Assembly (NCBI GenBank): GCA_963621665.1
Contig: CAVFEZ010000005.1
Span: forward strand, 6,005 to 70,004
From: Akkermansia muciniphila
Lineage (GTDB): Bacteria > Bacteroidota > Bacteroidia > Bacteroidales > Bacteroidaceae
DNA length: 64,000 nucleotides
Direction: 5' to 3'
The position numbers were made by a program, and so were the translations under genes. This document shows, one piece after another, positions 41,182 through 57,742 of the stretch (its first letter is position 1; each line of letters opens with the position of its first letter). The notes beneath the pieces were generated by a model that was given only the letters and a program-made list of their open reading frames with translations, ran no database searches and was not told where the DNA came from.

Positions 41182-43764
41182 TCAGATTTCCTCGATGACC
41201 GCGGTCTTGAGCCAGCCCTCGCGTCCGTCGGCCAAGCGCACAGCCCGCCAGCCCTTCATGGTATTGTCGGTGATGTCGACACGCGTTCCCTCGTGTATGA
41301 TAAAGGCATCGTTGGCACTGTCGGCGGGCGTCTTCTTGACAGTGACCACCGGTGCGATGACCACCGCCCCATTGCGCTGCTCGAAGGCCCGCTTCTGCTG
41401 CCAGGCAAACACATTGCCAAGCAGGAAGACCACAGCGAGTACGATACTGCCGTAGAAACCGACCTCGCGTACAAGGATACGCTTGCCAAACAGGTACAGC
41501 AACAGAAGTACGCACGCCAAAGTCAGCGCCACAACCGAGAGCGTCGCCCAGGCGTCAACACTCATCGCATTGACAAGCGAGCGGTACCAAGTGACGAAGA
41601 ACATCTCGTTTTGCGGGGTGATCTTGTCGATGGTGCGCGAGGACACAAACTGGAGATTGAACCAGATGTCCTTGTCGCCGGGCGACAGGAGGTGGGCACG
41701 CTCATAGGCAAGGACGGCCTGGGGCAGATTGCCTACCCGATACTGGGCGTTGCCGAGATTGTAGTATACATCGGCACTGACCCCTTGGCGCAACAGTTGG
41801 GTGTAGACCGTCACCGCCTGCTGGTATTCGCCACGCACGTAGGCAGAGTCGCCCTCAGCCTTGGTCACGGCAGATGCGGGAAGTGCCGTCATGAGCATAA
41901 ACAACAGGAGGAGGGACAGCGCACCGGACTTCTTCCGTGAGCGGGCCGCGCGTATGGCGTCTTCGATATCCATAATGGCATTCATGGCCGAGGTGTAGGT
42001 CTTGTTCATGTTTCCTGCCGCATCGCCGGGCGCATACCTTTCGTATTCGCACTCGTCGAGGGCACTGATAAATGTATCGATGGTAGTCTGGCTCACCTGA
42101 TGGCGCGACAGGGCTTCGGCGACATTGTCGCGCGAGAGTTGCTCGACAGGCATATTGAGTTTGTTGCTGACGTATCCCCACAATGCCCGCAGCACCTCGT
42201 CGTAGAACTCGCCCTGCCGTCCGGACTCCATCAGCCGGTGGGCAGCCTTGAGCCGCTTTGTGGCCACCTTGTTGGCACGGCGGCCCTTCATCTTGACGAT
42301 ATCGGCACTGTCGGCGGCATGCTTTCTGAAGACAACCATCAGGATGACAAATACGGCCAAGAGGGAGATGAGCGTCAGGATATAGCGCGTCGAGCCGAAG
42401 TAGAAGTCACCGACATCGTGCAGACGTGACGTTCCTTCATGCAACGGCAATATGTCATTGCGCTGGGCCTGCGAATAGTCGATGACGGCGGAACTCTTGC
42501 CGCTGCCCTTTTCTACAGTGACGGAGATGGGCTGTGTCTGTACCGTCTTGTAGGAAGATGTGGATGTGTCGTAATAGGTCAGTTTGACCGACGGTATAGT
42601 GTAGGTACCCTGGTTGCGCGGCACGACAAGATAGTCGTACACCATGTTGCCCTCGATGCCGTTGGTCGTCAGCCGTGTCTTGTCGGTCACCTTGGGGTCG
42701 TACTTGTCGAAATCCTTGGGGAACTCGACGACGGGCTGCTTGATCAGTTTGAGGTTGCCGACACCGCTCACCACGACACGCAAGGTCAACGGCTCGCCGG
42801 CCTTGGCCGTCTTCGACAAGAGCTGGGCCGTGATGCCGAACCGCCCTACTCCACCGGAGAAACCGGCGGGCTTGGCCGGCAGCGGATCGACCTGTATGGT
42901 CAGTCCGGGAGCGACAATGTCGCGATTGACCTCCACATATCCGGAACCGCCATTGAAGAAGGCCTCGAAGGGATCGACGTTTCTGTTCTGCTGCACAACA
43001 ACGCCCTTGAAGGTGATGCCGGGTATCTTCATCTGTCCCGTCATTTGGGGATACATGACATACTGGCTCCACGTGACACAACGGTAATTGCGGCCGTTGA
43101 CATTCTCTATGTGGAAACTCTTCTGCTGCGGCAGGGGTATCTCCTGGGTATGGAACCCTGCCAGATCGGGCATCTTGCCATTGAGCTGGGTCAGATTGAC
43201 CAACGTGTAGACCTTGTAGGTAAGAAGGATGGGTTCCTGCTCATGGACACGCTTCTTGTTGGCGCTCACCTTCACAAAAAGGTCGCTGCCGGAGATGCGG
43301 CTTCCCGCAGCGCGCATACCGTCGTCCTCACCGTCGTCCTCGTGCATACGCGGCGCACCGTTGCCTCTGCCGGCATTGCCGGAGACAGTGATGCGCACAG
43401 GGCGCGAGGTACAGGCCTTGCCATTGACGACGGCCCTTGCGGCCGGTATAGTGAACGTTCCGTTCTTCTCGGCATAGAGGGTATAGGTATAGGTGACCGA
43501 CGACGAACTGCTGGTATGGCCGTTGACAACCTGAAAACTGGACTGCTGCGACGTGTAGGGCCCGGCGATGACCTCGAGCCCTGACGGTATGTTGCCAGAC
43601 CGGAAGTCTGACACATCGGTTGTATTGATGGTATAGGCTATGCGGAAGTTTTCTCCGACAGCCACATGAGAAGGGGCTGAGACAACAATCTGCTGGGCCT
43701 GGGCGAGTAGCGCAAGGCAACTCAGGAAGCAAGCCACAAGCATGCGTTTCATAATTATCATCAT
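41182..43764 (-). CDS. batD: BatD-BatE fusion protein
   Basis: About 610-aa BatD (signal peptide, Ig-like repeats, TM, CEYERYAP) read through in frame into BatE (TPR YYNLGNAQYR, TMs, SH3-like IHEGTRV...GREGWL). Confidence 0.85.
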   Translation of the reverse strand: MMIIMKRMLVACFLSCLALLAQAQQIVVSAPSHVAVGENFRIAYTINTTDVSDFRSGNIPSGLEVIAGPYTSQQSSFQVVNGHTSSSSSVTYTYTLYAEKNGTFTIPAARAVVNGKACTSRPVRITVSGNAGRGNGAPRMHEDDGEDDGMRAAGSRISGSDLFVKVSANKKRVHEQEPILLTYKVYTLVNLTQLNGKMPDLAGFHTQEIPLPQQKSFHIENVNGRNYRCVTWSQYVMYPQMTGQMKIPGITFKGVVVQQNRNVDPFEAFFNGGSGYVEVNRDIVAPGLTIQVDPLPAKPAGFSGGVGRFGITAQLLSKTAKAGEPLTLRVVVSGVGNLKLIKQPVVEFPKDFDKYDPKVTDKTRLTTNGIEGNMVYDYLVVPRNQGTYTIPSVKLTYYDTSTSSYKTVQTQPISVTVEKGSGKSSAVIDYSQAQRNDILPLHEGTSRLHDVGDFYFGSTRYILTLISLLAVFVILMVVFRKHAADSADIVKMKGRRANKVATKRLKAAHRLMESGRQGEFYDEVLRALWGYVSNKLNMPVEQLSRDNVAEALSRHQVSQTTIDTFISALDECEYERYAPGDAAGNMNKTYTSAMNAIMDIEDAIRAARSRKKSGALSLLLLFMLMTALPASAVTKAEGDSAYVRGEYQQAVTVYTQLLRQGVSADVYYNLGNAQYRVGNLPQAVLAYERAHLLSPGDKDIWFNLQFVSSRTIDKITPQNEMFFVTWYRSLVNAMSVDAWATLSVVALTLACVLLLLYLFGKRILVREVGFYGSIVLAVVFLLGNVFAWQQKRAFEQRNGAVVIAPVVTVKKTPADSANDAFIIHEGTRVDITDNTMKGWRAVRLADGREGWLKTAVIEEI

Positions 43765-43797
43765 GGATTGTAATTAATGCATTATATTAGGACCGGT

Positions 43798-44481
43798 CTA
43801 CCAATTCTTGTCAAGCTTTCTCGGACGGGAGCGGTGCATGGCGTCCTTGACACGCTGCTGCGTGTTTTTCTCGTCCTGCATGGCCGCATTGAGCAGCTGC
43901 TCGGCGTTGTCTTTGCTCATACGCTCTTTGTCTTGCTGCTGCTTGTTCTGCTGCTGCTTGTTCTTGTCCTGGTTCTGCTTGTCCTTATTCTGTTTGTCCT
44001 TGTCTTTGTTCTGCTTGTTCTTGTTCTGGTTGTTGTTCTGGTTGTTGCGCGGGTCGTTTTTCTGCAAGCGCTTGCAAAGGGCAAGGTTATAGCGGGTCTC
44101 GTTGTCAGACGGATTGTTGCGCAGGCTCTCCTTATAGGCATTGATGGCCTCGGCATACATCTTTTTCGTCTGACAGATGACACCGATATTATGATAAGAC
44201 TTGGCCTTGCGCAACTTGCTGGTCTCCAACTGTCCGGCACGCTGGAACTGTTCGACGGCGGCAGAATCCTTGTTCTGCATCATCAGGGCACAGCCGAGAT
44301 TGTATATAGCCTGGGCGTTGCCCGAGTTTTCGGAGACGGCCTTGCGGTATTCCACCTCGGCCTTGGCAAAGTTCTGCTGCCGGAAAAACTTGTTTCCCGA
44401 GCGTATGTATTGTCTGTCGGCCTGTGCTGAAACCGCTACGGCAAGCAGGGTCAACAAATATAGAAGGATGGTTCTTTTCAT
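43798..44481 (-). CDS. batC: BatC TPR protein
   Basis: Signal peptide, TPRs (YNLG, YHNIG, TRYNLA), Q/N/K/D low-complexity linker, terminal KNW. Confidence 0.88.
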   Translation of the reverse strand: MKRTILLYLLTLLAVAVSAQADRQYIRSGNKFFRQQNFAKAEVEYRKAVSENSGNAQAIYNLGCALMMQNKDSAAVEQFQRAGQLETSKLRKAKSYHNIGVICQTKKMYAEAINAYKESLRNNPSDNETRYNLALCKRLQKNDPRNNQNNNQNKNKQNKDKDKQNKDKQNQDKNKQQQNKQQQDKERMSKDNAEQLLNAAMQDEKNTQQRVKDAMHRSRPRKLDKNW

Positions 44482-45506
44482 TTTTCTCCCTTTCTGAACA
44501 AACGGATATTTCTGAAAGCCGGATTCTTGGCCTCGAGAAGGCAAGCCTCAACGACAAGCAATACCAACGCCAGGATGGCAAATGCCTGAAACTGCTCGGC
44601 ATACTCGCTATAGACCACACTTTGGGTCTCGCCCTTCTGCAGTTTTGCCAACTCGCTATTGAGCCGCTCCTGTGCATCATTGGTATTGTCGACATGGATG
44701 TACGTGCCGTTGCCCGCCTGCGCCACTTCGCGGCACATCTGCTCGTTGAGGGCAGACATGACGGTCTGGCCGGCTGCATCACGCATATACTCGCCCTTGC
44801 CCAAGGGTATGGGGGCACCGGAGGTGCTTCCTACGCCAAGGATAAACACATTGATGCCCTTCTTCTTGGCGGCCTTGGCTGCCTCCAACGCACCGCCCTC
44901 ATGGTCTTCGCCATCGGTGATGAGAATGACGGCACGCCCGATCTTCTCCTGTTTCGAAAAACTGCTGCAAGCCAAATCGATGGCACGGGCTATATCGGTA
45001 CCCTGCGTGGAGATAAGAGACGGATTGGCACTCTGGAGAAACATCTTGGCGGAAACGTAGTCGCTCGTGATGGGCAACTGCACAAAGGCATCGCCTGCAA
45101 ACACAATCAAACCAATCTTGTCGTTGGTGAACTTGTCGACGAGGTTCTCCACCAGCATCTTGCTCTTGTCGAGTCGGGAAGGGACGACATCCTGTGCCAA
45201 CATGGAGTTGCTGATATCCAGCGCGATGATGGTCTCTATGCCATTTCGGTTGTCACGGGATATCTTGGAGCCCATCTGCGGACGGGCCAGCACAACAACC
45301 AGAAGGGCATAGGCGGCCGTCACGAGCCAAAACTTCACGGTAGGACGGTAGCGGGAGACCTGCGGCATGAGCTGCCGCAACAAAGCGGGGTCGCCAAAGG
45401 CGCGAAGGCGCTTGCGACGCACACGGAAAGTGATGATGCGGACCAGCATCAGCACCGGGACGGCCAAAAGCAGCCAGAGATATATAGGGTCTTCGAATCT
45501 GAACAT
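44478..45506 (-). CDS. batB: BatB vWA-domain protein
   Basis: LARPQ, MIDAS DISNSM, ITDGE. Confidence 0.9.
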   Translation of the reverse strand: MFRFEDPIYLWLLLAVPVLMLVRIITFRVRRKRLRAFGDPALLRQLMPQVSRYRPTVKFWLVTAAYALLVVVLARPQMGSKISRDNRNGIETIIALDISNSMLAQDVVPSRLDKSKMLVENLVDKFTNDKIGLIVFAGDAFVQLPITSDYVSAKMFLQSANPSLISTQGTDIARAIDLACSSFSKQEKIGRAVILITDGEDHEGGALEAAKAAKKKGINVFILGVGSTSGAPIPLGKGEYMRDAAGQTVMSALNEQMCREVAQAGNGTYIHVDNTNDAQERLNSELAKLQKGETQSVVYSEYAEQFQAFAILALVLLVVEACLLEAKNPAFRNIRLFRKGEK

Positions 45507-45513
45507 GACAATG

Positions 45514-46512
45514 CTAAGGTATACGGCGCAAAACCGTTGTTCTCAATATAATCTCGAAAAGCAACAGGATGACAGCAGCAAGAGCAAAGGGCTGATAGGC
45601 TTCATACCGCTTGGAGAAGCGCTTGACATCCATCTTGGTCTTCTCGAGTTTGTCTATATCTTTGTATATCTGGGCCAACTCCCTGTTGTTGGTGGCACGG
45701 TAAGAACTGGCACCGGTCACAGAGGAGATGTCGGAAAGGGTCTTGGTATCGAGCTCGACAGGCATATTCACATACTGCACACCGCCTGCTACCGGCACAG
45801 GATAGGGGGCGACCTTATTGGTACCTACCGCTATCGTGTAGACTCGTATGCCGAAACTCTGCGCTATCTGCGCGCTGGTCATGGGCGAGATGTCGCCCAT
45901 ATTGTTGCTTCCGTCTGTCAGCAGAATGACAATCTTACTCTTTGCCTTCGAATCTTTCAGGCGCGACACAGCATTGGCCACACCCATACCGATAGCCGTA
46001 CCGTCATGGATGATGTCCTGTGCAGCGATATCGGTGCGGACGCCCTGCAGCAAATTGAGCAACGAGGCATGGTCGGTGGTCATCGGACACTGCATGAAGG
46101 CTTCTCCGGCGAAAATCGTAAGGCCGATATTGTCATTTGGACGGCCGGAGATGAAGTCGGCGGCCACCGCTTTAGCAGCCTCAAGCCGGTTGGGGCGGAG
46201 ATCTTCGGCCAGCATGGATGTAGAAACGTCCATGACCAACATGATGTCGATACCCTCTACCGACTTGTTGTCCCATGAATTGTGGGTTTGAGGACGTGCC
46301 AGTACACATACGACCAGCACATAGACGATACACCGCAAGACCATCGGCAGATGCACAATGCGCATACGCCAACTCTTGGGTACATACCGATAGGCATCGG
46401 TACTGCCCATCCTCATTGTCGGTTCGCTGCTCTTGCGATAAAGCAAGTACCACAATATATAGGGTACAAGCAGAAGGAGCAACACGAAATATCCTTTACT
46501 TGCAAATTCCAT
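45514..46512 (-). CDS. batA: BatA vWA-domain protein
   Basis: LARPQ, DVSTSMLAED..PNRLEAAK, GTAIGMG, LLTDG.NN. Confidence 0.92.
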   Translation of the reverse strand: MEFASKGYFVLLLLLVPYILWYLLYRKSSEPTMRMGSTDAYRYVPKSWRMRIVHLPMVLRCIVYVLVVCVLARPQTHNSWDNKSVEGIDIMLVMDVSTSMLAEDLRPNRLEAAKAVAADFISGRPNDNIGLTIFAGEAFMQCPMTTDHASLLNLLQGVRTDIAAQDIIHDGTAIGMGVANAVSRLKDSKAKSKIVILLTDGSNNMGDISPMTSAQIAQSFGIRVYTIAVGTNKVAPYPVPVAGGVQYVNMPVELDTKTLSDISSVTGASSYRATNNRELAQIYKDIDKLEKTKMDVKRFSKRYEAYQPFALAAVILLLFEIILRTTVLRRIP

Positions 46513-46521
46513 TTCCTAATC

Positions 46522-47610
46522 TTATTCGAGCAACAGATACAAACGATAGGCCGCAAGCGATGCCAGCACGGCTATTGCAATGACGACAACCGTGATGGCC
46601 GTCTTGATGACGGTGCGGTTGCTTTGGGTGCGCTTGTCGTCCGCGCTGAGTTCGGGAACAATGCGCTCCGTGGTCGGCTGGCCTTCGATCTTGGTCTGGT
46701 CTATGAAATTGATGGCGTTGACGAGATTGAGGTCATTCTCGTTGAGAAGCGTAGAATACTTGGCAAACTTCACCAAATCGGCGGTGGTGAACAGTTCCTT
46801 CAGTTCGTCAAGCATCTTCCGGTCGCCCTGCTCCTGCAGGCGGTAGAGTATCTCCGAACTGGTCATTTCCTTGGCACTGAATCCGAAACGTTCCTCGATA
46901 TACTGACGCAAGGCATCAGTCAGTCGGGTATAATACTCCTTTTGGCTTTCCGGAGTGGCAAGATGCTCACTCTTCAGTTTGTCTATCGTATTGAGCGCCT
47001 TTTGGTGGGCAGGCACACGCTTGACGATTCGGATATGTGTGATAATGGGCTTGTTCTGCCGAAGTCTGACCACAAGGTAAAGACATACGACCGAAAGGAC
47101 CAGGACAAAAATGCACATCCACAATACAGGCGACCATTCCGACCAAAAGAAAGGATTGTCCTGCACATCCTTTGGCGGGAAGAACTTGTCGGCATGCAAG
47201 GTATCGACATCTACCGATATCACTTTGAGGGCCAACGTATTGGATGTATAGGGTTTGCCGTCTACCTTGACCTTCACACCGGGGATAGCGTACAGATGTT
47301 CGTCAAAACTGGTCAGCGTATACGAACGCGACACTTTCGTCTGCCCGTCGACATCGGTCTTCTCTTCTGAAGAACAGTCGAGCACCTCAACACCCGGAAC
47401 GATCAACTGACTGCGCTTGTAGGTCGGAAACGTCACACGGGCACCGTTACGCGCCGTCACCTCGACAGTCATCCGCACCTGCTCGCCGATCAGTATCTGC
47501 ACTGAGTCTATCTTCGCCTCGACATGTACCTGCGCCTGCAAGACGACAGCCACAAGCGAGAACAGCAGAAGGGCAATATGTCTTTTCAATAATATCTTAC
47601 TCATTTTCAT
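46522..47610 (-). CDS. Conserved Bat-operon membrane protein
   Basis: Signal peptide, Ig-like domain, TM, YYTRLTDALRQYIE..FG..A.EMTS, ADLVKFAK; sits between DUF58 and batA. Confidence 0.8.
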   Translation of the reverse strand: MKMSKILLKRHIALLLFSLVAVVLQAQVHVEAKIDSVQILIGEQVRMTVEVTARNGARVTFPTYKRSQLIVPGVEVLDCSSEEKTDVDGQTKVSRSYTLTSFDEHLYAIPGVKVKVDGKPYTSNTLALKVISVDVDTLHADKFFPPKDVQDNPFFWSEWSPVLWMCIFVLVLSVVCLYLVVRLRQNKPIITHIRIVKRVPAHQKALNTIDKLKSEHLATPESQKEYYTRLTDALRQYIEERFGFSAKEMTSSEILYRLQEQGDRKMLDELKELFTTADLVKFAKYSTLLNENDLNLVNAINFIDQTKIEGQPTTERIVPELSADDKRTQSNRTVIKTAITVVVIAIAVLASLAAYRLYLLLE

Positions 47611-47621
47611 TCATCATACTA

Positions 47622-48494
47622 TCAAACGCCCCGGGAAGAGAACAGCGCCATCATAGAGCGTACATAATCACCGTTGGTGGCTACCGACACCCAGTCGACA
47701 TTGCTCTTGGCGAAAGTCTGCCGCAGACGTTCCTCACGCATCTGCCAATAGCGGGAGTGGGCCTGCCGTACCTTCTTGGAACTGGTATCGATGAGCATCT
47801 CGTGCCCTGTCTCTGCATCGAGTACCTTCATCAGACCGATGTCGGGCAAGGTCTTGGCACGCTGGTCGTAGACCTGAATTGCCATCACATCATGCTTGCT
47901 GTTGGCAATCTGGAAGGGCTTTTCCATATCCTTGCCGTCATAGAAGTCGCTCAGCACGAAAGCGGTACAACGCCGCTTGACAACACGTGTAAGGTATTCC
48001 ACCGCCATACCCACGTCGGTACGGAGACTCTGCGGCTTGAAATCGATCATTTCGCGGATAATGTACAGAATGTGTTTCCGGCCCTTCTTGGGGGGAATGT
48101 ACTTTTCGATACGGTCAGAGAAGAAGATGACACCTATCTTGTCGTTGTTCTGTATGGCGCTGAACGCTATAGTGGCGGCAATTTCAGCCACCATGTCACG
48201 CTTCATCTGCACAGCAGTACCGAAATCCAGCGACCCCGAGACATCCACAAGCAGCATGACAGTCAGTTCACGCTCTTCCTCATATACCTTAATATAAGGC
48301 CGGCGGAAACGTGCGGTCACATTCCAGTCGATATCGCGGATGTCATCACCGAACTGATACTCGCGCACCTCGGAGAAAGCCATACCACGCCCCTTGAAGG
48401 CCGAATGGTATTGGCCGGCAAAGATGTTTTGGCTCAATCCGCGCGTCTTAATCTCTATCTTGCGGACTTTCTTTAATATATCTGATGTTTCCAC
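47622..48494 (-). CDS. DUF58 protein
   Basis: FKGRGMAFSEVREYQFGDDIRDIDWNVTAR, DVSGS; GTG start. Confidence 0.92.
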   Translation of the reverse strand: METSDILKKVRKIEIKTRGLSQNIFAGQYHSAFKGRGMAFSEVREYQFGDDIRDIDWNVTARFRRPYIKVYEEERELTVMLLVDVSGSLDFGTAVQMKRDMVAEIAATIAFSAIQNNDKIGVIFFSDRIEKYIPPKKGRKHILYIIREMIDFKPQSLRTDVGMAVEYLTRVVKRRCTAFVLSDFYDGKDMEKPFQIANSKHDVMAIQVYDQRAKTLPDIGLMKVLDAETGHEMLIDTSSKKVRQAHSRYWQMREERLRQTFAKSNVDWVSVATNGDYVRSMMALFSSRGV

Positions 48495-48562
48495 GAATTA
48501 CTTGTTTTTTATGTAACACTATTCGTTGTGTACAGCAAAAGCGGCACACGGAGGTGGCTACA

Positions 48563-49558
48563 TCAGGGTACCTCAACCTTGTTGATTATCTTGGAAACAA
48601 TTTCCTCGCTGGTCACATTGCTGGCTTCTGCCTCATAGGAAAGACCTATACGGTGGCGCATCACGTCATGGGCAACCGCACGCACATCTTCAGGCACTAC
48701 ATAGCCTCTGCGCTTGATGAAAGCGTAGGCACGGGCTGCCTTTGCCAGATTGATGCTTGCACGGGGAGAACCGCCGTAGGTGATCATGTCCTTGAGTTCC
48801 GGCAAACCGTAGCGCTCGGGGTAGCGGGAAGCGAAGACGATATCGGCAATATACTGTTCGATCTTCTCATCGATATATACTTCGCGTACCACCTTGCGGG
48901 CGTTGAGTATTTCTTCTGCCGTAGTCACGGGAGTAACTGCAGGAAGACTGCCGGCGAGATTTTCGCGGATAATCAGTTTTTCCTCTTCAAGCGACGGATA
49001 ACCGATGATGACCTTCAGCATAAAACGGTCGACCTGTGCCTCGGGCAACTGGTAGGTACCCTCCTGCTCGATGGGGTTCTGGGTAGCCATCACAAGGAAT
49101 GGATTGGGAAGGGCAAATGTCTTCTCCCCGATGGTAACCTGATGCTCCTGCATGGCCTCAAGCAGAGCGCTCTGCACCTTTGCCGGGGCACGGTTTATCT
49201 CATCGGCCAAAACGAAATTAGCAAATACGGGACCTTTCTTCACATGGAAGCCTTCATCCTTCTGTGAATAGACGAGCGTACCGATGACATCGGCCGGAAG
49301 GAGATCGGGAGTAAACTGTATTCTGCTAAAATCGGCATCAATAAGTTGTGACAAAGTTTTGATGGCCAATGTCTTGGCCAGACCGGGGACACCTTCGAGC
49401 AAAATATGTCCGTCACTCAGAAGGGAAATGAGCAAAGAGTCAACCAAGTGACGCTGCCCCACAATCACGCGGTTCATTCCCGTCACGAGATTGGTGATAA
49501 AACCGCTTTGCTGTTCTATCCGAATGTTCAGTTCCCGGATATCAATAGATTCTGCCAT
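48563..49558 (-). CDS. MoxR family AAA+ ATPase
   Basis: EGVPGLAKT, RIQFTPDLLPAD, DEINRAPAKVQSALLEAM, TQNPIEQEGTY, GSPRAS. Confidence 0.95.
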   Translation of the reverse strand: MAESIDIRELNIRIEQQSGFITNLVTGMNRVIVGQRHLVDSLLISLLSDGHILLEGVPGLAKTLAIKTLSQLIDADFSRIQFTPDLLPADVIGTLVYSQKDEGFHVKKGPVFANFVLADEINRAPAKVQSALLEAMQEHQVTIGEKTFALPNPFLVMATQNPIEQEGTYQLPEAQVDRFMLKVIIGYPSLEEEKLIIRENLAGSLPAVTPVTTAEEILNARKVVREVYIDEKIEQYIADIVFASRYPERYGLPELKDMITYGGSPRASINLAKAARAYAFIKRRGYVVPEDVRAVAHDVMRHRIGLSYEAEASNVTSEEIVSKIINKVEVP

Positions 49559-50490: not shown

Positions 50491-52002
50491 ATGAAGAAAA
50501 CCACATACGTCACCATACTTTTCCTACTATCCGTCTTTATAGCAGGCATAACGAGCGGATGCCAAGACAGCGGAAAGAAAGCATTCAACCGCCTGTTGCT
50601 GCAATTGGCCGAAGAAGACCACACCATAGACCACAATGACTGGATGGCCATCGAAAAATGGATGCACGAGAATGCCGCAGCACTCAGCGAATTGCGTGAC
50701 GGCGACCATCCAGACGTCAAGAAGACCAAGGAGTACATCGCAGATTTCTTCAAAAACCGCCGACCCTCCGCAGACATCACCTTTGTCGGTATCGGGAACA
50801 AGCCCTTTTTTGCCGTTCACCTGTACTTGGAGCGTTCCGGCAGCATGGCACCCTACGACAGCCGCGAAGGAGACGGACTCTTCAAGTCAGCCATCGTGCA
50901 GTTGCTGAACAGTCTACCCGGTGACAACAACGACAACCGCATCTATATCGTCAACAGCACTGTAAACGCCTATCCCGAAGGATTCGACAAATTTCTTTCG
51001 GATACCGACATCTTTGAAAGCACCAAGGGCATAGGCGATGCCAGTTATACGGATTTCAGTTCGATCTTCAGCGACCTGCTGAACAATACCGGAGACAATG
51101 ATCTCAGCATCCTTGTCACCGACATGATCTACTCCACCAAAAACATGAGTGGAGTAAGTCCGCAAAAGATATTCAACGAGGCTGAAGGAATGACCAACGC
51201 TGTCTTCAAGAACATCGGAACACAAAAATCGATGCTGGTTGTAAAATTGCACAGTGGATATCACGGCCCCTACTACAGCTACGATGCGCCATCCACAGGC
51301 AAACGCTATGACGGGCAACGTCCCTTCTATATGGTCATCGTGACCTCGAATGCGAACATGGCCCGACTGACAACGGACCACCACTATCAGGCATTTGCCC
51401 GACTGGCACAGATCAAGGGATACGACGACGAGTACCTTTTCAGCGCAGCACCACCATACGCCCCCTACCACTCGCTGTTGCTGAACCACCGCGACATACG
51501 CGGACGGTTCAAACCGGAAAGAGGATCAGGTACGCAGGTTACATCCATCAAAGACGTGGAAACTGACCCTGAGACAAAAGACTTCAGGCTAATACTGGCC
51601 GTCGATCTCAGCCACATGTTCATCGCGGACAGTTATCTGACCGACAAGAAGAACTACGAGGTGGCATCGGGCAGCGGTATGAAAATCGTTTCCATACGCC
51701 CCATCAGGAGCGGTGACCTCACAGAGACAGAAAAACGGTACGCCGGCACGGCCACCCATCTGTTCACACTCAGTGCGGGGAGAACCATCCCCAAAGACGA
51801 CATCCACATCCGGCTGAAGAACGTTTTGCCGGCATGGATTGCCAACACGTCTACTGACGATGACCGAGACACGCACACGGGGAATTTCAGCGAAACGACA
51901 TTCGGTCTGAAATATCTTTTAGGCGGCATATACCAGTCGTACAAGAAAAGTGCGGGCGGCGTACCCGACTACTTTGACATCGAACTCAAACTGAGCGAAT
52001 AA
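50491..52002 (+). CDS. Lipoprotein with vWA/MIDAS-like domain
   Basis: Signal with lipobox ITSG-C24; VHLYLERSGSM, YTDF and SILVTDM resemble the MIDAS DxSxS...T...D triad. Confidence 0.7.
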   Translation: MKKTTYVTILFLLSVFIAGITSGCQDSGKKAFNRLLLQLAEEDHTIDHNDWMAIEKWMHENAAALSELRDGDHPDVKKTKEYIADFFKNRRPSADITFVGIGNKPFFAVHLYLERSGSMAPYDSREGDGLFKSAIVQLLNSLPGDNNDNRIYIVNSTVNAYPEGFDKFLSDTDIFESTKGIGDASYTDFSSIFSDLLNNTGDNDLSILVTDMIYSTKNMSGVSPQKIFNEAEGMTNAVFKNIGTQKSMLVVKLHSGYHGPYYSYDAPSTGKRYDGQRPFYMVIVTSNANMARLTTDHHYQAFARLAQIKGYDDEYLFSAAPPYAPYHSLLLNHRDIRGRFKPERGSGTQVTSIKDVETDPETKDFRLILAVDLSHMFIADSYLTDKKNYEVASGSGMKIVSIRPIRSGDLTETEKRYAGTATHLFTLSAGRTIPKDDIHIRLKNVLPAWIANTSTDDDRDTHTGNFSETTFGLKYLLGGIYQSYKKSAGGVPDYFDIELKLSE

Positions 52003-52580: not shown

Positions 52581-54125
52581 GTGAGACTTTTCTTATTCTT
52601 GGTCGGCGGGACCGGTTCCCGCGTATTGCGTCCGCTCATCATGCAGTTTGCAGCGGGCATACACCCGACCGACGAGGCCGGCAACGCCATTCCCCTGGAA
52701 GTAGTACCCGTCATCATCGACCCCCACAAAGCCAATGAAGACCTGAAGCGTACGGACAACCTCCTACGTTGGTACAAACAGATACACCGCGCTCTGTACG
52801 GACAACGCAGCGATGCCACACGCGGCTTTTTCTCAGTCAAGATATCGACACTCAGCGATATATGTCCGCAAGGGAATGAACTGGCAGACACGTTTCAGAT
52901 GAAACTTGGTACGCTGGAATCGACAAAATTCCGCGACTTCATCAACTACAACACGATGGACACCGCCAACCAGGCCCTTTGCTCCATGATGTTTTCCGAC
53001 TACCAACTTGAGACCAAGATGGACATCGGATTTGTCGGAAGTCCCAATATCGGAAGCATTGCGCTCAACGAGCTGAAAGACAGTGAAGAGTTCAAACAAT
53101 TCTCCAACGTATTTCAAAAAGAAGACCGTGTGTTCATCGTCAGTTCGATATTCGGCGGAACAGGAGCGGCCGGATACCCTGTCATCGTGAACAACATCCG
53201 CAATGCGGACGAAAACACATCCATCAACAACCGAGGAGACCTGCGCAACGCAAAAATCGGGGCACTCACCGTATTGCCCTACTTCAACGTACAACAAGAC
53301 GAGAACAGTCCGATTTCCCGAGCCGACTTTATCTCCAAGACGAAATCTGCCCTGTATTACTATCACGACAATCTGACCGGACTACGGTATGGCGGAAAGG
53401 ATACGGGAACGTCAAAAATCAACGCATGCTACTATCTCGGTGACGAGGTACCGTCGACCCCATATTTCAACGACCCAGGAGGGAACGGCCAGCGCAACGA
53501 TGCCCACCTTGTGGAATTTGTCGGAGCCTTGTCCATACTCGACTTTCTCCAGATTTCAGACGACCAGATCGTTACGGCAGACGGCAAAGCCATTCGCCCC
53601 ATTTACAAAGAATACGGGCTGGCCAACGACACGAGAAACGTCACGCTCAAAGACTTGGGCCTGCAGACACGGATTGCCATCAATGAGCAGATGGCCAAAT
53701 TCCATCTCGCATATATGTATATCACATATCGGCTGCGCGAAGATATCGGGCACGGCTACACGCTCGACAAACCAGCCATAACGAAAGGATTTCTGTCGAC
53801 ATCGTTCTTTACCACGCTGACAGCCAACTTTTTCGTAGCCTACGCACAATGGCTCAAGGAACTGCAAAACAACCAAAGAAGTTTCGCTCCCTTCAACCTC
53901 GATACGCAGGAGATAAGAAATTGCCTGAACCACATCGAAGCGAGAAGCGGATTTCTGAAGACTCCACCCAACTACAAGCACATACTCTCTGCACTCAACG
54001 CGGCCTCACAAAAAGCAGTCAAAACCAATGCCTATGGCGAGACAGAGACCGCCGGCAAACTCCTTGGACTACTCGACATGGTCTTGGGGAAACTGCTCGA
54101 CGAAAAATACGATTCCGTAGTCTGA
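52581..54125 (+). CDS. Divergent tubulin/FtsZ-superfamily GTPase (Tubulin_2-like)
   Basis: LVGGTGSRV, IIDP, GFVGSPNIG, SSIFGGTGAAG (tubulin signature variant), TVLPYF in canonical order; GTG start. Confidence 0.85.
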   Translation: MRLFLFLVGGTGSRVLRPLIMQFAAGIHPTDEAGNAIPLEVVPVIIDPHKANEDLKRTDNLLRWYKQIHRALYGQRSDATRGFFSVKISTLSDICPQGNELADTFQMKLGTLESTKFRDFINYNTMDTANQALCSMMFSDYQLETKMDIGFVGSPNIGSIALNELKDSEEFKQFSNVFQKEDRVFIVSSIFGGTGAAGYPVIVNNIRNADENTSINNRGDLRNAKIGALTVLPYFNVQQDENSPISRADFISKTKSALYYYHDNLTGLRYGGKDTGTSKINACYYLGDEVPSTPYFNDPGGNGQRNDAHLVEFVGALSILDFLQISDDQIVTADGKAIRPIYKEYGLANDTRNVTLKDLGLQTRIAINEQMAKFHLAYMYITYRLREDIGHGYTLDKPAITKGFLSTSFFTTLTANFFVAYAQWLKELQNNQRSFAPFNLDTQEIRNCLNHIEARSGFLKTPPNYKHILSALNAASQKAVKTNAYGETETAGKLLGLLDMVLGKLLDEKYDSVV

Positions 54126-54148: not shown

Positions 54149-57100
54149 ATGAGCAAAATACTGGCATACAACAACAAGACGACCGGCGAGAGTTGGATAC
54201 CGCTAAGCGGCCAATACTCTGCCGACGAAATAGAAATGATAGCCGATCCGAACGGCGGGCTGTCGCAAACGCCACGGACTGCCATTCCAAGTCCATTTGC
54301 CCAAATGGACCTGGTCAAGAATGCCTTTCACCGGCTATCAACCCACACTGACCTCCACGGGGAGACAATGGACGAGAAACTCGTATCAGACGCTTTGGAC
54401 ATTGCCCAACTGTTTTTCTGCTACAAAGAACTGACAGAAAGTCTGCACATCATCACATGGAACAGAGCAACAGAGATTGCCAAATTGCTGGCCAGTCCGC
54501 AACACAGAATTGTCGGAGAGACAATCGAGATGTTCCTCAAGCAAGACCAGGAAGCCTTCAACTTTGCAAAGATGGACAAGCTCCACTTTCTTGTCTACGG
54601 CAATGCTGTCATCGGAAGCACGTCACCAGTCACCCTCTTCATGGCCAGTCCCAACGCCGCACCAAACATATACGACATTCCATTGGAGCAGAACGTGAAG
54701 ATATTCTCCCGATGGCGGCCGCTCTATCAACGCGAAAAGCGCTTTGTTGTCTACTGCTATGCGCTCTTCACGGCCTACCCGGAACTCAAGCAACTGTGCA
54801 GCGAGGTCAATGCCTACCTGATCAGGAACTTCCGCCTTTTGCCACAAGACACACAGTCGGACATCACCAAAAACATCGGCAACCCGGAAGCACTCGACAT
54901 GGACAAGACAGACAAGGCGCTCAACTACCTGAATGCCAATTTCGACAAGATGGAAGACGGAGTACAGGCCTTAGGCGTTCCGTTCTACTGCGCACGCCAG
55001 CAAGACGTAGAAGAGGATATTGCAGCAAGCGATTTCAGAATACAAAGCACAAAGGCGACAATGGGCGAAAAGATGCCGCTCATTCTTCAGAACCACCTGA
55101 ATGCGCCGGGCAACGACCCATTCAGATACATTGTCGACAACTGGGACGACTCTATCATCATCACTCCGGAGGACTATGCCCTTTCTCCAGAGAAAAGATT
55201 GCTTCCGGGGACCACCCACCAGTATCCGTGGCTCACAGACGACGATTTTCTTGAACCGGCACTCATCAAACTCGACTATGCCATCAACCGCGACTGCTTC
55301 TTCGACGGCAACATCACACAGGAGACAAGAGAGACCGATGACTACGATTTTCTATTGCCCATCAAACCGCTTTTCTTCAAATACTTCAATGTCAGCGACC
55401 TTTGGGGGACAATAGGTGGCCGTCCGCGTTTCGAACTGCGGCACTCCAAAACCGGACAGACGGAAACCGTCAAGGCCATACTGCGTATACCCGTACAGAA
55501 GTCAGGACACTACGTCACACTCTCGCGTACATACATCCAGTCGACAGACTGCAATTTGGAATACGACAACGGACGGAATTGCGGAAAATTTATTACCCTA
55601 CCATTTGCTATCGCCATCTTCCCGTTTGTCAAGACCACACAACCGGGACAATACCACATACAACTCGTTGACCGGGCACTCGGACAAATGGAAAACTACG
55701 CCATCGGCCTGACGTTCCATGACAGTACCCATGACGAACAGATAGAATGCACAGCGAGAAAGCGGAGCATGAAAGCCGTCAAAAGGGTCGGCTCGCTATA
55801 CTACAGACTCGACGGTTCATTCGACCATATCAAGGCTTCACTTACCGACGACCTCAACAGGGTTGTGGCAGAAGGCATCATCTGCCCCCGATGGGCCAAT
55901 CACGTCGAAGGCCACGAAGCCTTCACCTTCGCTGTAGATTTCGGTACGACCAACACCCATGTGGAATGTATGCGCGAGAACCAAATGCCCGCACCGCTCA
56001 AAGTGGCCTCCGCCACGCAGGAGCGTATGGTTGCCACGCTATACAACGGAAGCAGCATTCTATACGATGTCATACTTCATCAGGAATTTCTGCCACAAGT
56101 CATCGGAGGCGAGTACGGATTTCCACAACGTACTGTACTTTCTGAAAGCGAGCACCTCAATGCAGCGCAGGCCGACGAGATTATCGCTCTGTGCGACGCC
56201 AACATCCCCTTCATCTACGAGAAGGAATCCATCGGTTACGGAAACCGCATCATCGCCGACCTGAAATGGTCTACCGACCTGTCCACCAACAAGCGCATCC
56301 ACACCTACCTGACCGAGTTGGCCCAACTCATGAGAACAAAGGTTCTTCTTGAGAACGGTGACCTAGCAAAGACACGCGTGGTCTGGTTCTACCCCCTCAG
56401 CATGAAAGTGGGAAGAATCCGGAAAATGGAAGAAATGTGGAAAAAAACCTTCGAAAAGGTATTCGGTACTACCGCAGACGAAAAGAACCTTCTGCAAATG
56501 CCCGAATCGGTCGCTCCCTACTACTATTACAAGTGCTCCAGCCAGTTCCGGGGTGCCGCCGCCAACGTAGCGAGCATAGACATAGGCGGCGGATCAAGTG
56601 ACGTGGCCGTATTCGAGTCCAACACCGGAGTCCCCACCCTACTCACATCATTCAGATTTGCAGCCAATACGCTCTTCGGCGACGGATTCTCGGAATTGCC
56701 ACATGGCGACACCAATCCCCTGACCCGGAAATACGTCGGCTTCTTCAGACAAATATTCGATCGCGACGATGACAAGTACGGCGAACTGAACGGCATCATG
56801 GACGACATCGTAGACAAGCGGAAGTCAGAAGACATCAATGCGTTTCTCTTCTCCATCGAAAACAACAAAGCCACCAAAGGCAACGACCTGTTCTCTTTCA
56901 ACAAGAGACTCAATGAGGACGAGACACGCAAGATCATCTTCATCTACTTCTACGCCGCTATCATCTACTATGTAGCCCGGATGATGGAACACCGGCAACT
57001 GGATATGCCCCAAAGCGTCATGTTCAGCGGAACAGGTTCCAAGACACTTGATATCGTTGGAACCAAGACTGATTTGGAACTACTCACCCGGTACATCTTC

Positions 57101-57622
57101 GAAAAGGTATACGCAAAAACCTACGGAGAGAAACCGTTCTCCATCGTCACAGAAAGGACCGAGCCCAAACACATCACCTGCAGGGGGGCACTCCTGCAGG
57201 TAAGAGACGAGACCGGCTGCAAAAACGTGCAGGAACTTAACCGCCAAATGTACGAATTTGACAACCCGCTGAAGTACAACTACTCCATGCTCGACAAAGA
57301 AACGCTCACCTACGATGACATAAGCAATTCCGACATACAGGCATCCATTGTCAACGAAGTACGCAAGTACAACACGATGTTCCTGCAACTCTGCGAAGAT
57401 GCCCATGTATGCGACCGTTTCCTTGTCAACAGAAAAGCATTCGAACTGTTCAAAACGCTACTGAACAAGGATTTGGAACACCATCTCATCACAGGTTGGA
57501 ATTTCTACAACAAAAACCAAAGCGAGAAGAACGGAGCCGATCCCATAGAAGATGCCGTATTCTTCTACCCTATCATAGGAAGCATACGCGACAACATGAT
57601 AGAAAACTTAAAAGAGGAATAA
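54149..57622 (+). CDS. Large protein with C-terminal actin/Hsp70-superfamily ATPase domain
   Basis: AVDFGTTNT, MPESVAP, SIDIGGGSSD, MFSGTGSK, EPKHITCRGAL match phosphate1, connect1, phosphate2, adenosine and connect2; about 590-aa unknown N-terminal region. Confidence 0.85.
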   Translation: MSKILAYNNKTTGESWIPLSGQYSADEIEMIADPNGGLSQTPRTAIPSPFAQMDLVKNAFHRLSTHTDLHGETMDEKLVSDALDIAQLFFCYKELTESLHIITWNRATEIAKLLASPQHRIVGETIEMFLKQDQEAFNFAKMDKLHFLVYGNAVIGSTSPVTLFMASPNAAPNIYDIPLEQNVKIFSRWRPLYQREKRFVVYCYALFTAYPELKQLCSEVNAYLIRNFRLLPQDTQSDITKNIGNPEALDMDKTDKALNYLNANFDKMEDGVQALGVPFYCARQQDVEEDIAASDFRIQSTKATMGEKMPLILQNHLNAPGNDPFRYIVDNWDDSIIITPEDYALSPEKRLLPGTTHQYPWLTDDDFLEPALIKLDYAINRDCFFDGNITQETRETDDYDFLLPIKPLFFKYFNVSDLWGTIGGRPRFELRHSKTGQTETVKAILRIPVQKSGHYVTLSRTYIQSTDCNLEYDNGRNCGKFITLPFAIAIFPFVKTTQPGQYHIQLVDRALGQMENYAIGLTFHDSTHDEQIECTARKRSMKAVKRVGSLYYRLDGSFDHIKASLTDDLNRVVAEGIICPRWANHVEGHEAFTFAVDFGTTNTHVECMRENQMPAPLKVASATQERMVATLYNGSSILYDVILHQEFLPQVIGGEYGFPQRTVLSESEHLNAAQADEIIALCDANIPFIYEKESIGYGNRIIADLKWSTDLSTNKRIHTYLTELAQLMRTKVLLENGDLAKTRVVWFYPLSMKVGRIRKMEEMWKKTFEKVFGTTADEKNLLQMPESVAPYYYYKCSSQFRGAAANVASIDIGGGSSDVAVFESNTGVPTLLTSFRFAANTLFGDGFSELPHGDTNPLTRKYVGFFRQIFDRDDDKYGELNGIMDDIVDKRKSEDINAFLFSIENNKATKGNDLFSFNKRLNEDETRKIIFIYFYAAIIYYVARMMEHRQLDMPQSVMFSGTGSKTLDIVGTKTDLELLTRYIFEKVYAKTYGEKPFSIVTERTEPKHITCRGALLQVRDETGCKNVQELNRQMYEFDNPLKYNYSMLDKETLTYDDISNSDIQASIVNEVRKYNTMFLQLCEDAHVCDRFLVNRKAFELFKTLLNKDLEHHLITGWNFYNKNQSEKNGADPIEDAVFFYPIIGSIRDNMIENLKEE

Positions 57623-57700: not shown

Positions 57701-57742
57701 AGCAAACCCCGGAAACAGAAAATTCTGTTTCCGGGGTTTGCT
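57701..57742. terminator. Bidirectional terminator hairpin
   Basis: 20-bp perfect inverted repeat AGCAAACCCCGGAAACAGAA/TTCTGTTTCCGGGGTTTGCT between convergent genes. Confidence 0.85.

Follow-up and report, generated by a model that had tools for sequence, protein, structure and literature searches.

The four-gene operon and its distribution

The stretch of DNA analysed here, a window of 64,000 nucleotides, carries a set of four genes arranged as an operon, all with intact frames, that encode a predicted lipoprotein, a small membrane protein, a tubulin-like protein of 514 aa and a large protein of 1157 aa, hereafter the partner (Table 1). The lipoprotein has a hydrophobic N-terminal stretch (residues 6-24), and its C24, S116 and D211 are invariant in 36/36 homologues, which carry E or D at position 114; it gave a weak match to a PDB chain (E 0.073) and no Pfam vWA match. 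The small membrane protein has no Pfam family either. The tubulin gene is a single open frame that starts with GTG, and at the first aligned codon 67 of 80 homologous loci have ATG and the other 13 have GTG. The scan that detected the stem-loop beyond the partner gene calls it on the minus strand only; a sigma-70 promoter scan performed at chance level (6 found, 6.6 expected).

Table 1. Features of the operon, with positions in the window
Feature	Position	Strand	Basis or remark
503-aa predicted lipoprotein with vWA/MIDAS-like motif (ExSGS ... TD)	50491..52002	+	Motif conservation
Small membrane protein of 147 aa with three predicted hydrophobic helices	52062..52505	+	Hydropathy
514-aa tubulin/FtsZ-fold GTP-binding protein (predicted) without T7/H8	52581..54125	+	GTPase domain at roughly 1-345, followed by a helical domain (361-509)
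T2-T3 insertion, residues 121-142	52941..53006	+	Predicted partner-docking surface (interface list of complex model)
Family motif Q304-x-N306-x-A308-H309-x-x-E312 and helix H7	53490..53552	+	Putative guanine-reading element
Variable loop, residues 325-343, at the FtsZ T7/H8 site	53553..53609	+	Alignment and model
1157-aa partner	54149..57622	+	N-terminal arm 1-58, tubulin-binding domain (predicted), beta-rich middle, actin/Hsp70 fold 588-1035
19-bp stem-loop, terminator-like	57701..57742		Between operon end and convergent DUF3127 gene

This copy of the operon has a GC content of 50.5% (genome, 53.7%) and is flanked by maf and dnaN. In the 93.7%-complete assembly no copy of the gene that usually stands fifth was found. 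The one that usually comes sixth, which encodes a zinc-ribbon membrane protein and normally ends the operon in Prevotella-type loci, lies on another contig (L166:3605-4357, plus strand; contig C8 of G000). Its neighbours on C8 also flank the operon in loci L030, L033 and L036, in the other orientation. The displacement of the zinc-ribbon gene and its neighbours suggests that the four core genes have moved. A complete MoxR-DUF58-BatA/B/D (Bat) operon occupies positions 41182-49558 just upstream, on the minus strand; since the two operons adjoin each other in no locus but this one and that of the near relative L002, the proximity looks coincidental.

Gene order (lipoprotein, small membrane protein, tubulin, large protein) is kept in 77/80 close loci, the exceptions being two contig ends and L041, which has no large gene. 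The lipoprotein gene is present in 78 of these loci (both absences fall at contig ends), the small membrane protein gene in 79, and the partner gene lies directly 3' of the tubulin gene in 79. Another 47 loci, taken from sampled genomes of Bacteroidota, show the same adjacency in 45 cases; this set comprises 7 phylum-level loci, 28 order-level loci from which edge and fragment matches were excluded, and 12 genus-level loci picked for their divergence. Besides L041, the loci with no adjoining partner gene are L146 and L152, both of a distant clade. The tubulin was detected in 58/150 genus-level, 29/400 order-level and 7/400 phylum-level genomes. Among the 150 genus-level genomes, the partner profile matches 55, all of them tubulin carriers, and none of the 92 that lack the tubulin; the three carriers that the profile missed hold distant-clade copies, one of which (L164, in G840) has a partner by inspection.

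Within Bacteroidota the operon has a patchy distribution. It is found in cyanobacteria as well, with the same layout on plasmids of Gloeothece and Picosynechococcus. Some tubulin copies are plasmid-borne and others are cargo adjoining an integrase and a relaxase. Four loci labelled as non-Bacteroidota (L002, L022, L036 and L077) encode proteins 47-90% identical to the tubulin within loci of Bacteroidales type; they are probably mislabelled bins and were therefore not taken as evidence for further phyla. A literature search that reached few subscription journals or bioRxiv supplements found no paper describing the operon, and the parts of PMC3495828 that were covered contained nothing relevant.

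The tubulin-like protein and its T7 region

The nearest named relatives of the 514-aa protein are of Prevotella-type Bacteroidales; 2884 homologues were recognised among 7997 candidates scored, and 1605 cluster representatives had E <= 0.001. A sequence-only reading of this gene had described a non-canonical tubulin/FtsZ homologue and listed its GTP-binding loops, every one of which lies in the translation where that reading had placed it: VGGTG from residue 8, IIDP from residue 45, GFVGSPNIG from residue 150, FGGTGAAG from residue 191 (positions 53151-53174) and LPYF from residue 232. In an alignment of 150 homologues the T1 glycines G9, G10 and G12 are 98% conserved, while D47 of T2, G150, F151, G153 and G158 of T3, G192, G193 and G195 of T4, and P233 and Y234 of T5 are all 100% conserved, a pattern by which the motifs are judged not to be a product of chance. 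T4 of the family reads FGGTGA(A/S)G, as against GGGTG(S/T)G in the tubulin/FtsZ superfamily. Further conserved columns are K253 and the pair G287/D288. Since the nucleotide-loop columns are conserved, the protein is likely to bind GTP.

A second conserved block precedes and enters helix H7 (residues 310-324 of the model). Q304 is found in 95%, N306 in 99%, H309 in 96% and E312 in 100% of the 150 homologues, and the motif is retained across all three subclades. In FtsZ, guanine is read by F183 and D187, and by their position H309 and E312 are the likely counterparts of these two residues.

The fold assignment agrees with the motifs. An AlphaFold2 model built with 150 sequences reached a pLDDT of 94.7 and a pTM of 0.95, and its best structural match was CetZ (3zid; Z 15.3, rmsd 3.6, 215 residues aligned), tied with FtsZ and tubulins; CetZ, FtsZ, tubulins and PhuZ lie within about one Z unit of each other, at 8-19% identity. 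When 48,161 chains were searched without bias, members of the tubulin superfamily took all top 17 places (Z 10.1-15.2), and the Rossmann enzymes, an unrelated fold whose appearance as best match would have refuted the earlier reading by its own terms, reached a Z of 9.4 at most, below every one of these chains. The matches cover approximately residues 1-370. Beyond the strand at 341-344 the model consists of helices to the end, with no counterpart of the alpha/beta C-terminal domain of FtsZ; residues 361-509 form the helical region that had been foreseen. This domain is poorly conserved (identity 0.29) and, in structural searches run with whole-chain models, no fold match was listed for it. 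On the basis of the model, the protein has a tubulin/FtsZ GTPase fold.

The region following H7 is where the family departs from FtsZ. The loop varies from 10 to 30 aa in length and contains the synergy motif NxDxx[DE] in 1/150 homologues, compared with 6/6 FtsZ controls; some form of DxxD/E occurs in 21/150. Mean pairwise identity falls to 0.22 in the loop (325-343) against 0.51 over residues 1-324, and no H8 was seen in the model after H7. The only NxDxx[DE] of the protein, NLDTQE at residue 439, sits in the C-terminal helical part and is unconserved. A profile-profile alignment placed D334 opposite the T7 aspartate of FtsZ; the residue is not conserved, and the comparison with six FtsZ sequences had a probability of 0.3%, too weak to use, so D334 was rejected as a T7 aspartate. 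The terminal peptide of FtsZ is of the IPxFL type, and none is visible in the translation. The earlier failure to find the synergy loop or this peptide was thus borne out, as was the claim of a long insertion between T2 and T3, where the alignment gives a spacing of about 100 residues, far above that of FtsZ. The canonical protofilament interface is formed by T7, the base of H8 and S9, with the catalytic aspartate on T7 (PMC3678025, in the parts covered). As T7 and H8 are missing from the model, a canonical self-activating filament is unlikely.

Profile scans do not assign the protein to a known family. It scored 20.1 bits with Pfam Tubulin (cut-off 33), 18.3 bits with Tubulin_2, PF13809 (cut-off 27), and 13.3 bits with the FtsZ model TIGR00065 (cut-off 295.2); for the four core proteins together, Pfam, NCBIfam and PADLOC gave nothing above cut-off. 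PF13809 is annotated on many cyanobacterial homologues, one of which (L089) exceeds the cut-off with 40.8 bits, and when seven long Tubulin_2 proteins were compared by profile, the match reached E 7e-4 at a probability of 27%. In a tree of 39 GTPase domains, the 26 short proteins from Bacteroidota and cyanobacteria form a single clade (support 99/97), the seven long Tubulin_2 proteins, taken from Bacteroidota only, form their own (96/92), and the six FtsZ sequences stand apart, an outcome whose reliability is limited by long branches, a thin outgroup and the few long rows. Placement inside FtsZ is thus contradicted by tree and score alike. A canonical FtsZ is encoded elsewhere in this genome and in 5/5 other carriers, and from these sequences we conclude that the 514-aa protein is not the cell's own FtsZ. 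One genome (G398) holds both a short-clade tubulin (L096) and a long Tubulin_2 protein (L103) at different loci, and an 820-aa relative of the cyanobacterial subclade (P0433) bears an N-terminal protein kinase domain.

The closest published description is that of FtsZl1 by Makarova and Koonin (2010; PMC2875224), who suggested that these proteins might polymerise by a novel mechanism. According to the parts of that paper covered here, FtsZl1 combines a divergent FtsZ-like N-terminal domain, carrying inserts between T1 and T4 and no recognisable T7, with a helical C-terminus, coexists with a normal FtsZ, is patchily spread, and is linked to genes for vWA, GTPase and OmpA-like proteins; apart from the GTPase link, these features recur in the 514-aa protein and its operons, the vWA gene having as its candidate counterpart the lipoprotein with a MIDAS-like motif but no Pfam vWA match. 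The two differ in that full-length FtsZl1 entries in the neighbourhood table span 732-1393 aa and mostly contain a coiled coil, with neither T6-H7 nor T7 identifiable, whereas our protein is compact, retains T6 and H7, and has a T3 of the form GFxGxPNxG. Moreover, the fixed partner of the short clade has an actin/Hsp70 fold (predicted), a family not named among the FtsZl1-associated genes in those parts. Going by the covered parts of the published FtsZl1 set, the 514-aa protein would therefore represent a short (about 500 aa) sister clade of FtsZl1, apart from the published long ones. FtsZl2, defined in the same source by the presence of T7, a stand-alone gene and occurrence in Proteobacteria, is set apart by that description, T7 being absent and the operon fixed in our case. 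Tubulin_2 proteins were left aside as overly divergent in PMC9871819, again as far as its covered parts go.

The actin-like partner and its predicted complex with the tubulin

Modelled alone, the partner reached a pLDDT of 86.8, with residues 1-21 and 29-47 below 50. Residues 588-1035 superimpose on Arp3 (Z 13.3, rmsd 4.3, 314 residues aligned), the best Foldseek match is the filament protein BeeR (E 3e-8), and the matches spread evenly over Arps, Hsp70, MreB and ParM. The phosphate-1, phosphate-2 and adenosine motifs are all present, and D597/G599/T600, E786, D811/G813/G814 and G961 are invariant in 88 partners; on model and motifs, the partner has an actin/Hsp70 superfamily fold with intact ATP motifs. 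No fold match was listed for residues 48-585 in a whole-chain search. As this region and the tubulin's C-terminal domain are matchless only inside whole models, neither provides evidence of a new fold. When a partner homologue was searched in the Atlas, the named Pfam cluster that came closest at a similar size was SrfB (PF07520) of srfABC (score 0.88, 162 shared features), which we regard as a lead only: PF07520 had no Pfam match in the partner or the homologues scanned, and no SrfA- or SrfC-like genes were recognised in the tubulin operons. In L053 (9624-16000) the large actin-like gene is duplicated in tandem.

The N-terminal half of this protein had been proposed from sequence as the tubulin's partner, and complex prediction gives the idea support. 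A model of the tubulin with partner residues 1-420, GTP and Mg had an ipSAE of 0.90, against 0.00 for the best of three controls; the runs share at least 91% of their contacts, and the partner has a pLDDT of at least 80. The mark used for this score is reached by 116/157 solved complexes and 2/215 mismatched pairs, figures that apply to this prediction only approximately. In the complex model the arm, unconfident on its own, wraps the tubulin domain, and partner residues 16-19 pair antiparallel with tubulin residues 342-346, joining W16 (98% conserved) with E344 (88%). The T2-T3 insertion (121-142) docks onto partner residues 102-169, which gives it a likely role, and the predicted interface takes in T3 (153-156), T4 (191, 193), T5 (232, 234), T6 and H7 residues. 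Conservation is higher at the interface than elsewhere on both sides (0.58 vs 0.42; 0.49 vs 0.37), a comparison confounded by the membership of GTP-loop residues in the interface. Likewise, the pairwise identities of tubulin and partner correlate at 0.98 because of shared descent, and this correlation is therefore not evidence of binding. Binding between the two proteins is supported by the prediction.

Possible roles of the operon

Taken together, we lean with modest confidence towards a T7-less tubulin that probably binds GTP and probably acts as a switch subunit, clasped by its partner's arm, and not as a self-activating filament. Partner residues 16-19 would add a strand to the tubulin at 342-346, and the arm would then run over H3-H5 up to the T3, T4, T5 and T6 loops. 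GTP turnover might be slow and uncoupled from canonical protofilament growth, and the nucleotide state of the tubulin might control the ATPase partner. The small membrane protein and the vWA-like lipoprotein could anchor the pair beneath the inner membrane. The system would respond when the envelope is perturbed, for example by an entering phage or a damaged wall, and a ZorAB-like ion motor could serve it as an optional sensor. From the neighbouring genes, the operon is likely membrane-linked and responsive to cell-envelope damage or phage attack.

The motor refers to genes that follow the core in many relatives. Of 40 genome loci that extend downstream by 3.5 kb or more, 16 have a ZorA/ZorB-like pair there, as do 7 of 8 loci from the viral collection, several of them near-identical. 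The ZorB-like genes have a W.SY.DLM motif and an OmpA-like domain (PADLOC ZorB, E 6e-14), and in the ZorA-like products three TM helices are combined with a long tail (weak matches, E 6e-7 at best). In two loci (L115:14861-17955 and L131) one ZorA-like gene precedes two ZorB-like paralogues, and in a distant subclade (L096, L097, L153 and L164) a partner of 1290-1300 aa is followed by two TerD-like genes and not by ZorAB, with an OmpA protein gene also following in L096. Other accessory genes encode trypsin or aspartyl proteases, non-specific endonuclease, TerD, OmpA, SH3, YkuD and TM2 proteins. In Zorya, according to the covered parts of PMC11946911, the ZorAB motor senses envelope perturbation and its tail recruits cytosolic effectors. 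Many tubulin operons end in comparable genes, with the ZorA long tail, the ZorB TM aspartate motif and the OmpA-like domain; in place of ZorC, ZorD or ZorE, the cytoplasmic parts are tubulin-fold and actin-fold NTPases.

The operon could be specifically an anti-phage system with kinship to Zorya, its tubulin-actin pair taking the place of nuclease effectors, a possibility that we consider less likely than not. The motor genes, the patchy spread and the copies beside an integrase and a relaxase speak for it. However, the motor is optional and no ZorAB-like pair was found among the ORFs called in the 80 close loci, nor in this genome, where the neighbours are the housekeeping genes maf and dnaN; the four core proteins have no PADLOC match, nor do ZorC/D, ZorE or ZorF/G effectors appear among the proteins scanned; and defence models matched, at E <= 1e-20, 5 of the 128 flanking proteins scanned (of 178, in loci L126-L155), a count that stands without a control set. 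A comparable system, the predicted GAP1-N2 GTPase-centric conflict systems, uses tubulin, HSP70 and vWA components (Kaur et al. 2020, PMC7159879); in the parts of that work covered, the themes built on tubulin and on HSP70 do not overlap, come from firmicutes and actinobacteria and require TRAFAC GTPases, whereas our operon holds both folds at once and no TRAFAC GTPase was recognised in it.

That the partner acts as a true GAP, its arm supplying the catalytic residue that T7 gives in FtsZ, was also part of the sequence-only reading, and this part fared less well. The predicted interface does reach T3, T4, T5 and T6 residues, partner position 33 is D or E in 92% of 88 sequences, and 42 of 49 diverse partners have Arg at the residue following the IPSPFA motif. 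Nevertheless, that position is Gln (Q52) here and in 57% of the 88-row alignment, and the acidic columns near the motif are unconserved across clades, the best having D in 19/49 and 21/49. The arm, whose core reads T-[SA]-[IVL]-P-[ST]-P-F-A-[RQ], has W16 in 98% and P47 and P49 in 100% of 88 partners, and its invariant residues, Pro and Ala, resemble a docking strap. As no acidic or Arg residue of the arm is invariant, the GAP idea is unsupported and we judge it unlikely; judged from the model, a nucleotide-state reader or clamp fits the arm better.

Equally improbable, in our opinion, is a filament or scaffold built through new interfaces, by the tubulin alone or by tubulin-partner units, that remodels membranes in the way proposed for FtsZl1. 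The novel polymerisation suggested for FtsZl1 in the covered parts of PMC2875224, together with the partner's intact ATP motifs and its top match to BeeR, would favour such a structure, but T7 and H8 are missing, the C-terminal helical domain is poorly conserved, and the partner's matches are so evenly spread that they give no indication of filament formation. The role of a second division protein or of a TubZ for plasmid or phage partitioning, despite the fold matches to FtsZ, CetZ, TubZ and PhuZ and the plasmid-borne copies, is very improbable given the TIGR00065 score, the canonical FtsZ of this and the other carriers, the lack of any match among 50,697 annotated phages and the absence of the tubulin from most sampled relatives.

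The divisome itself offers a familiar parallel to the operon. There, FtsZ and FtsA bring a tubulin-fold GTPase and an actin-fold ATPase together near the inner membrane, a pairing common to the operon described here. The latter has neither T7 nor the FtsZ C-terminal domain and peptide and is dispensable in most relatives, and the predicted contact is reversed, with the N-terminal arm of the actin-like protein binding the tubulin core.

The 514-aa tubulin is, on the models and alignments, real, T7-less and, by prediction, bound by its partner; the contributions made here are a count of how far T7 has been lost and a predicted partner interface. The cited papers, in the parts covered, state no known function for FtsZl1-type proteins, and a short soluble member with a confident model and a specific predicted interface makes the action of a T7-less tubulin directly testable. 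In a broader and more tentative interpretation, which we would not yet expect to hold, this would be a tubulin family that has abandoned self-activated protofilaments for an obligate tubulin-actin heterocomplex, in which a GTP switch is joined to an actin-fold effector powered by ATP, and which would form the cytoplasmic output of a Zorya-like, nuclease-free immune system that senses the envelope in Bacteroidota and cyanobacteria. If the operon is defensive, Zorya-type motors would be widened to non-nuclease effectors. A direct complex of a tubulin fold with an actin fold outside the divisome, if true, would be a new use of both cytoskeletal folds, in a system present in more than a third of the sampled genus-level genomes.
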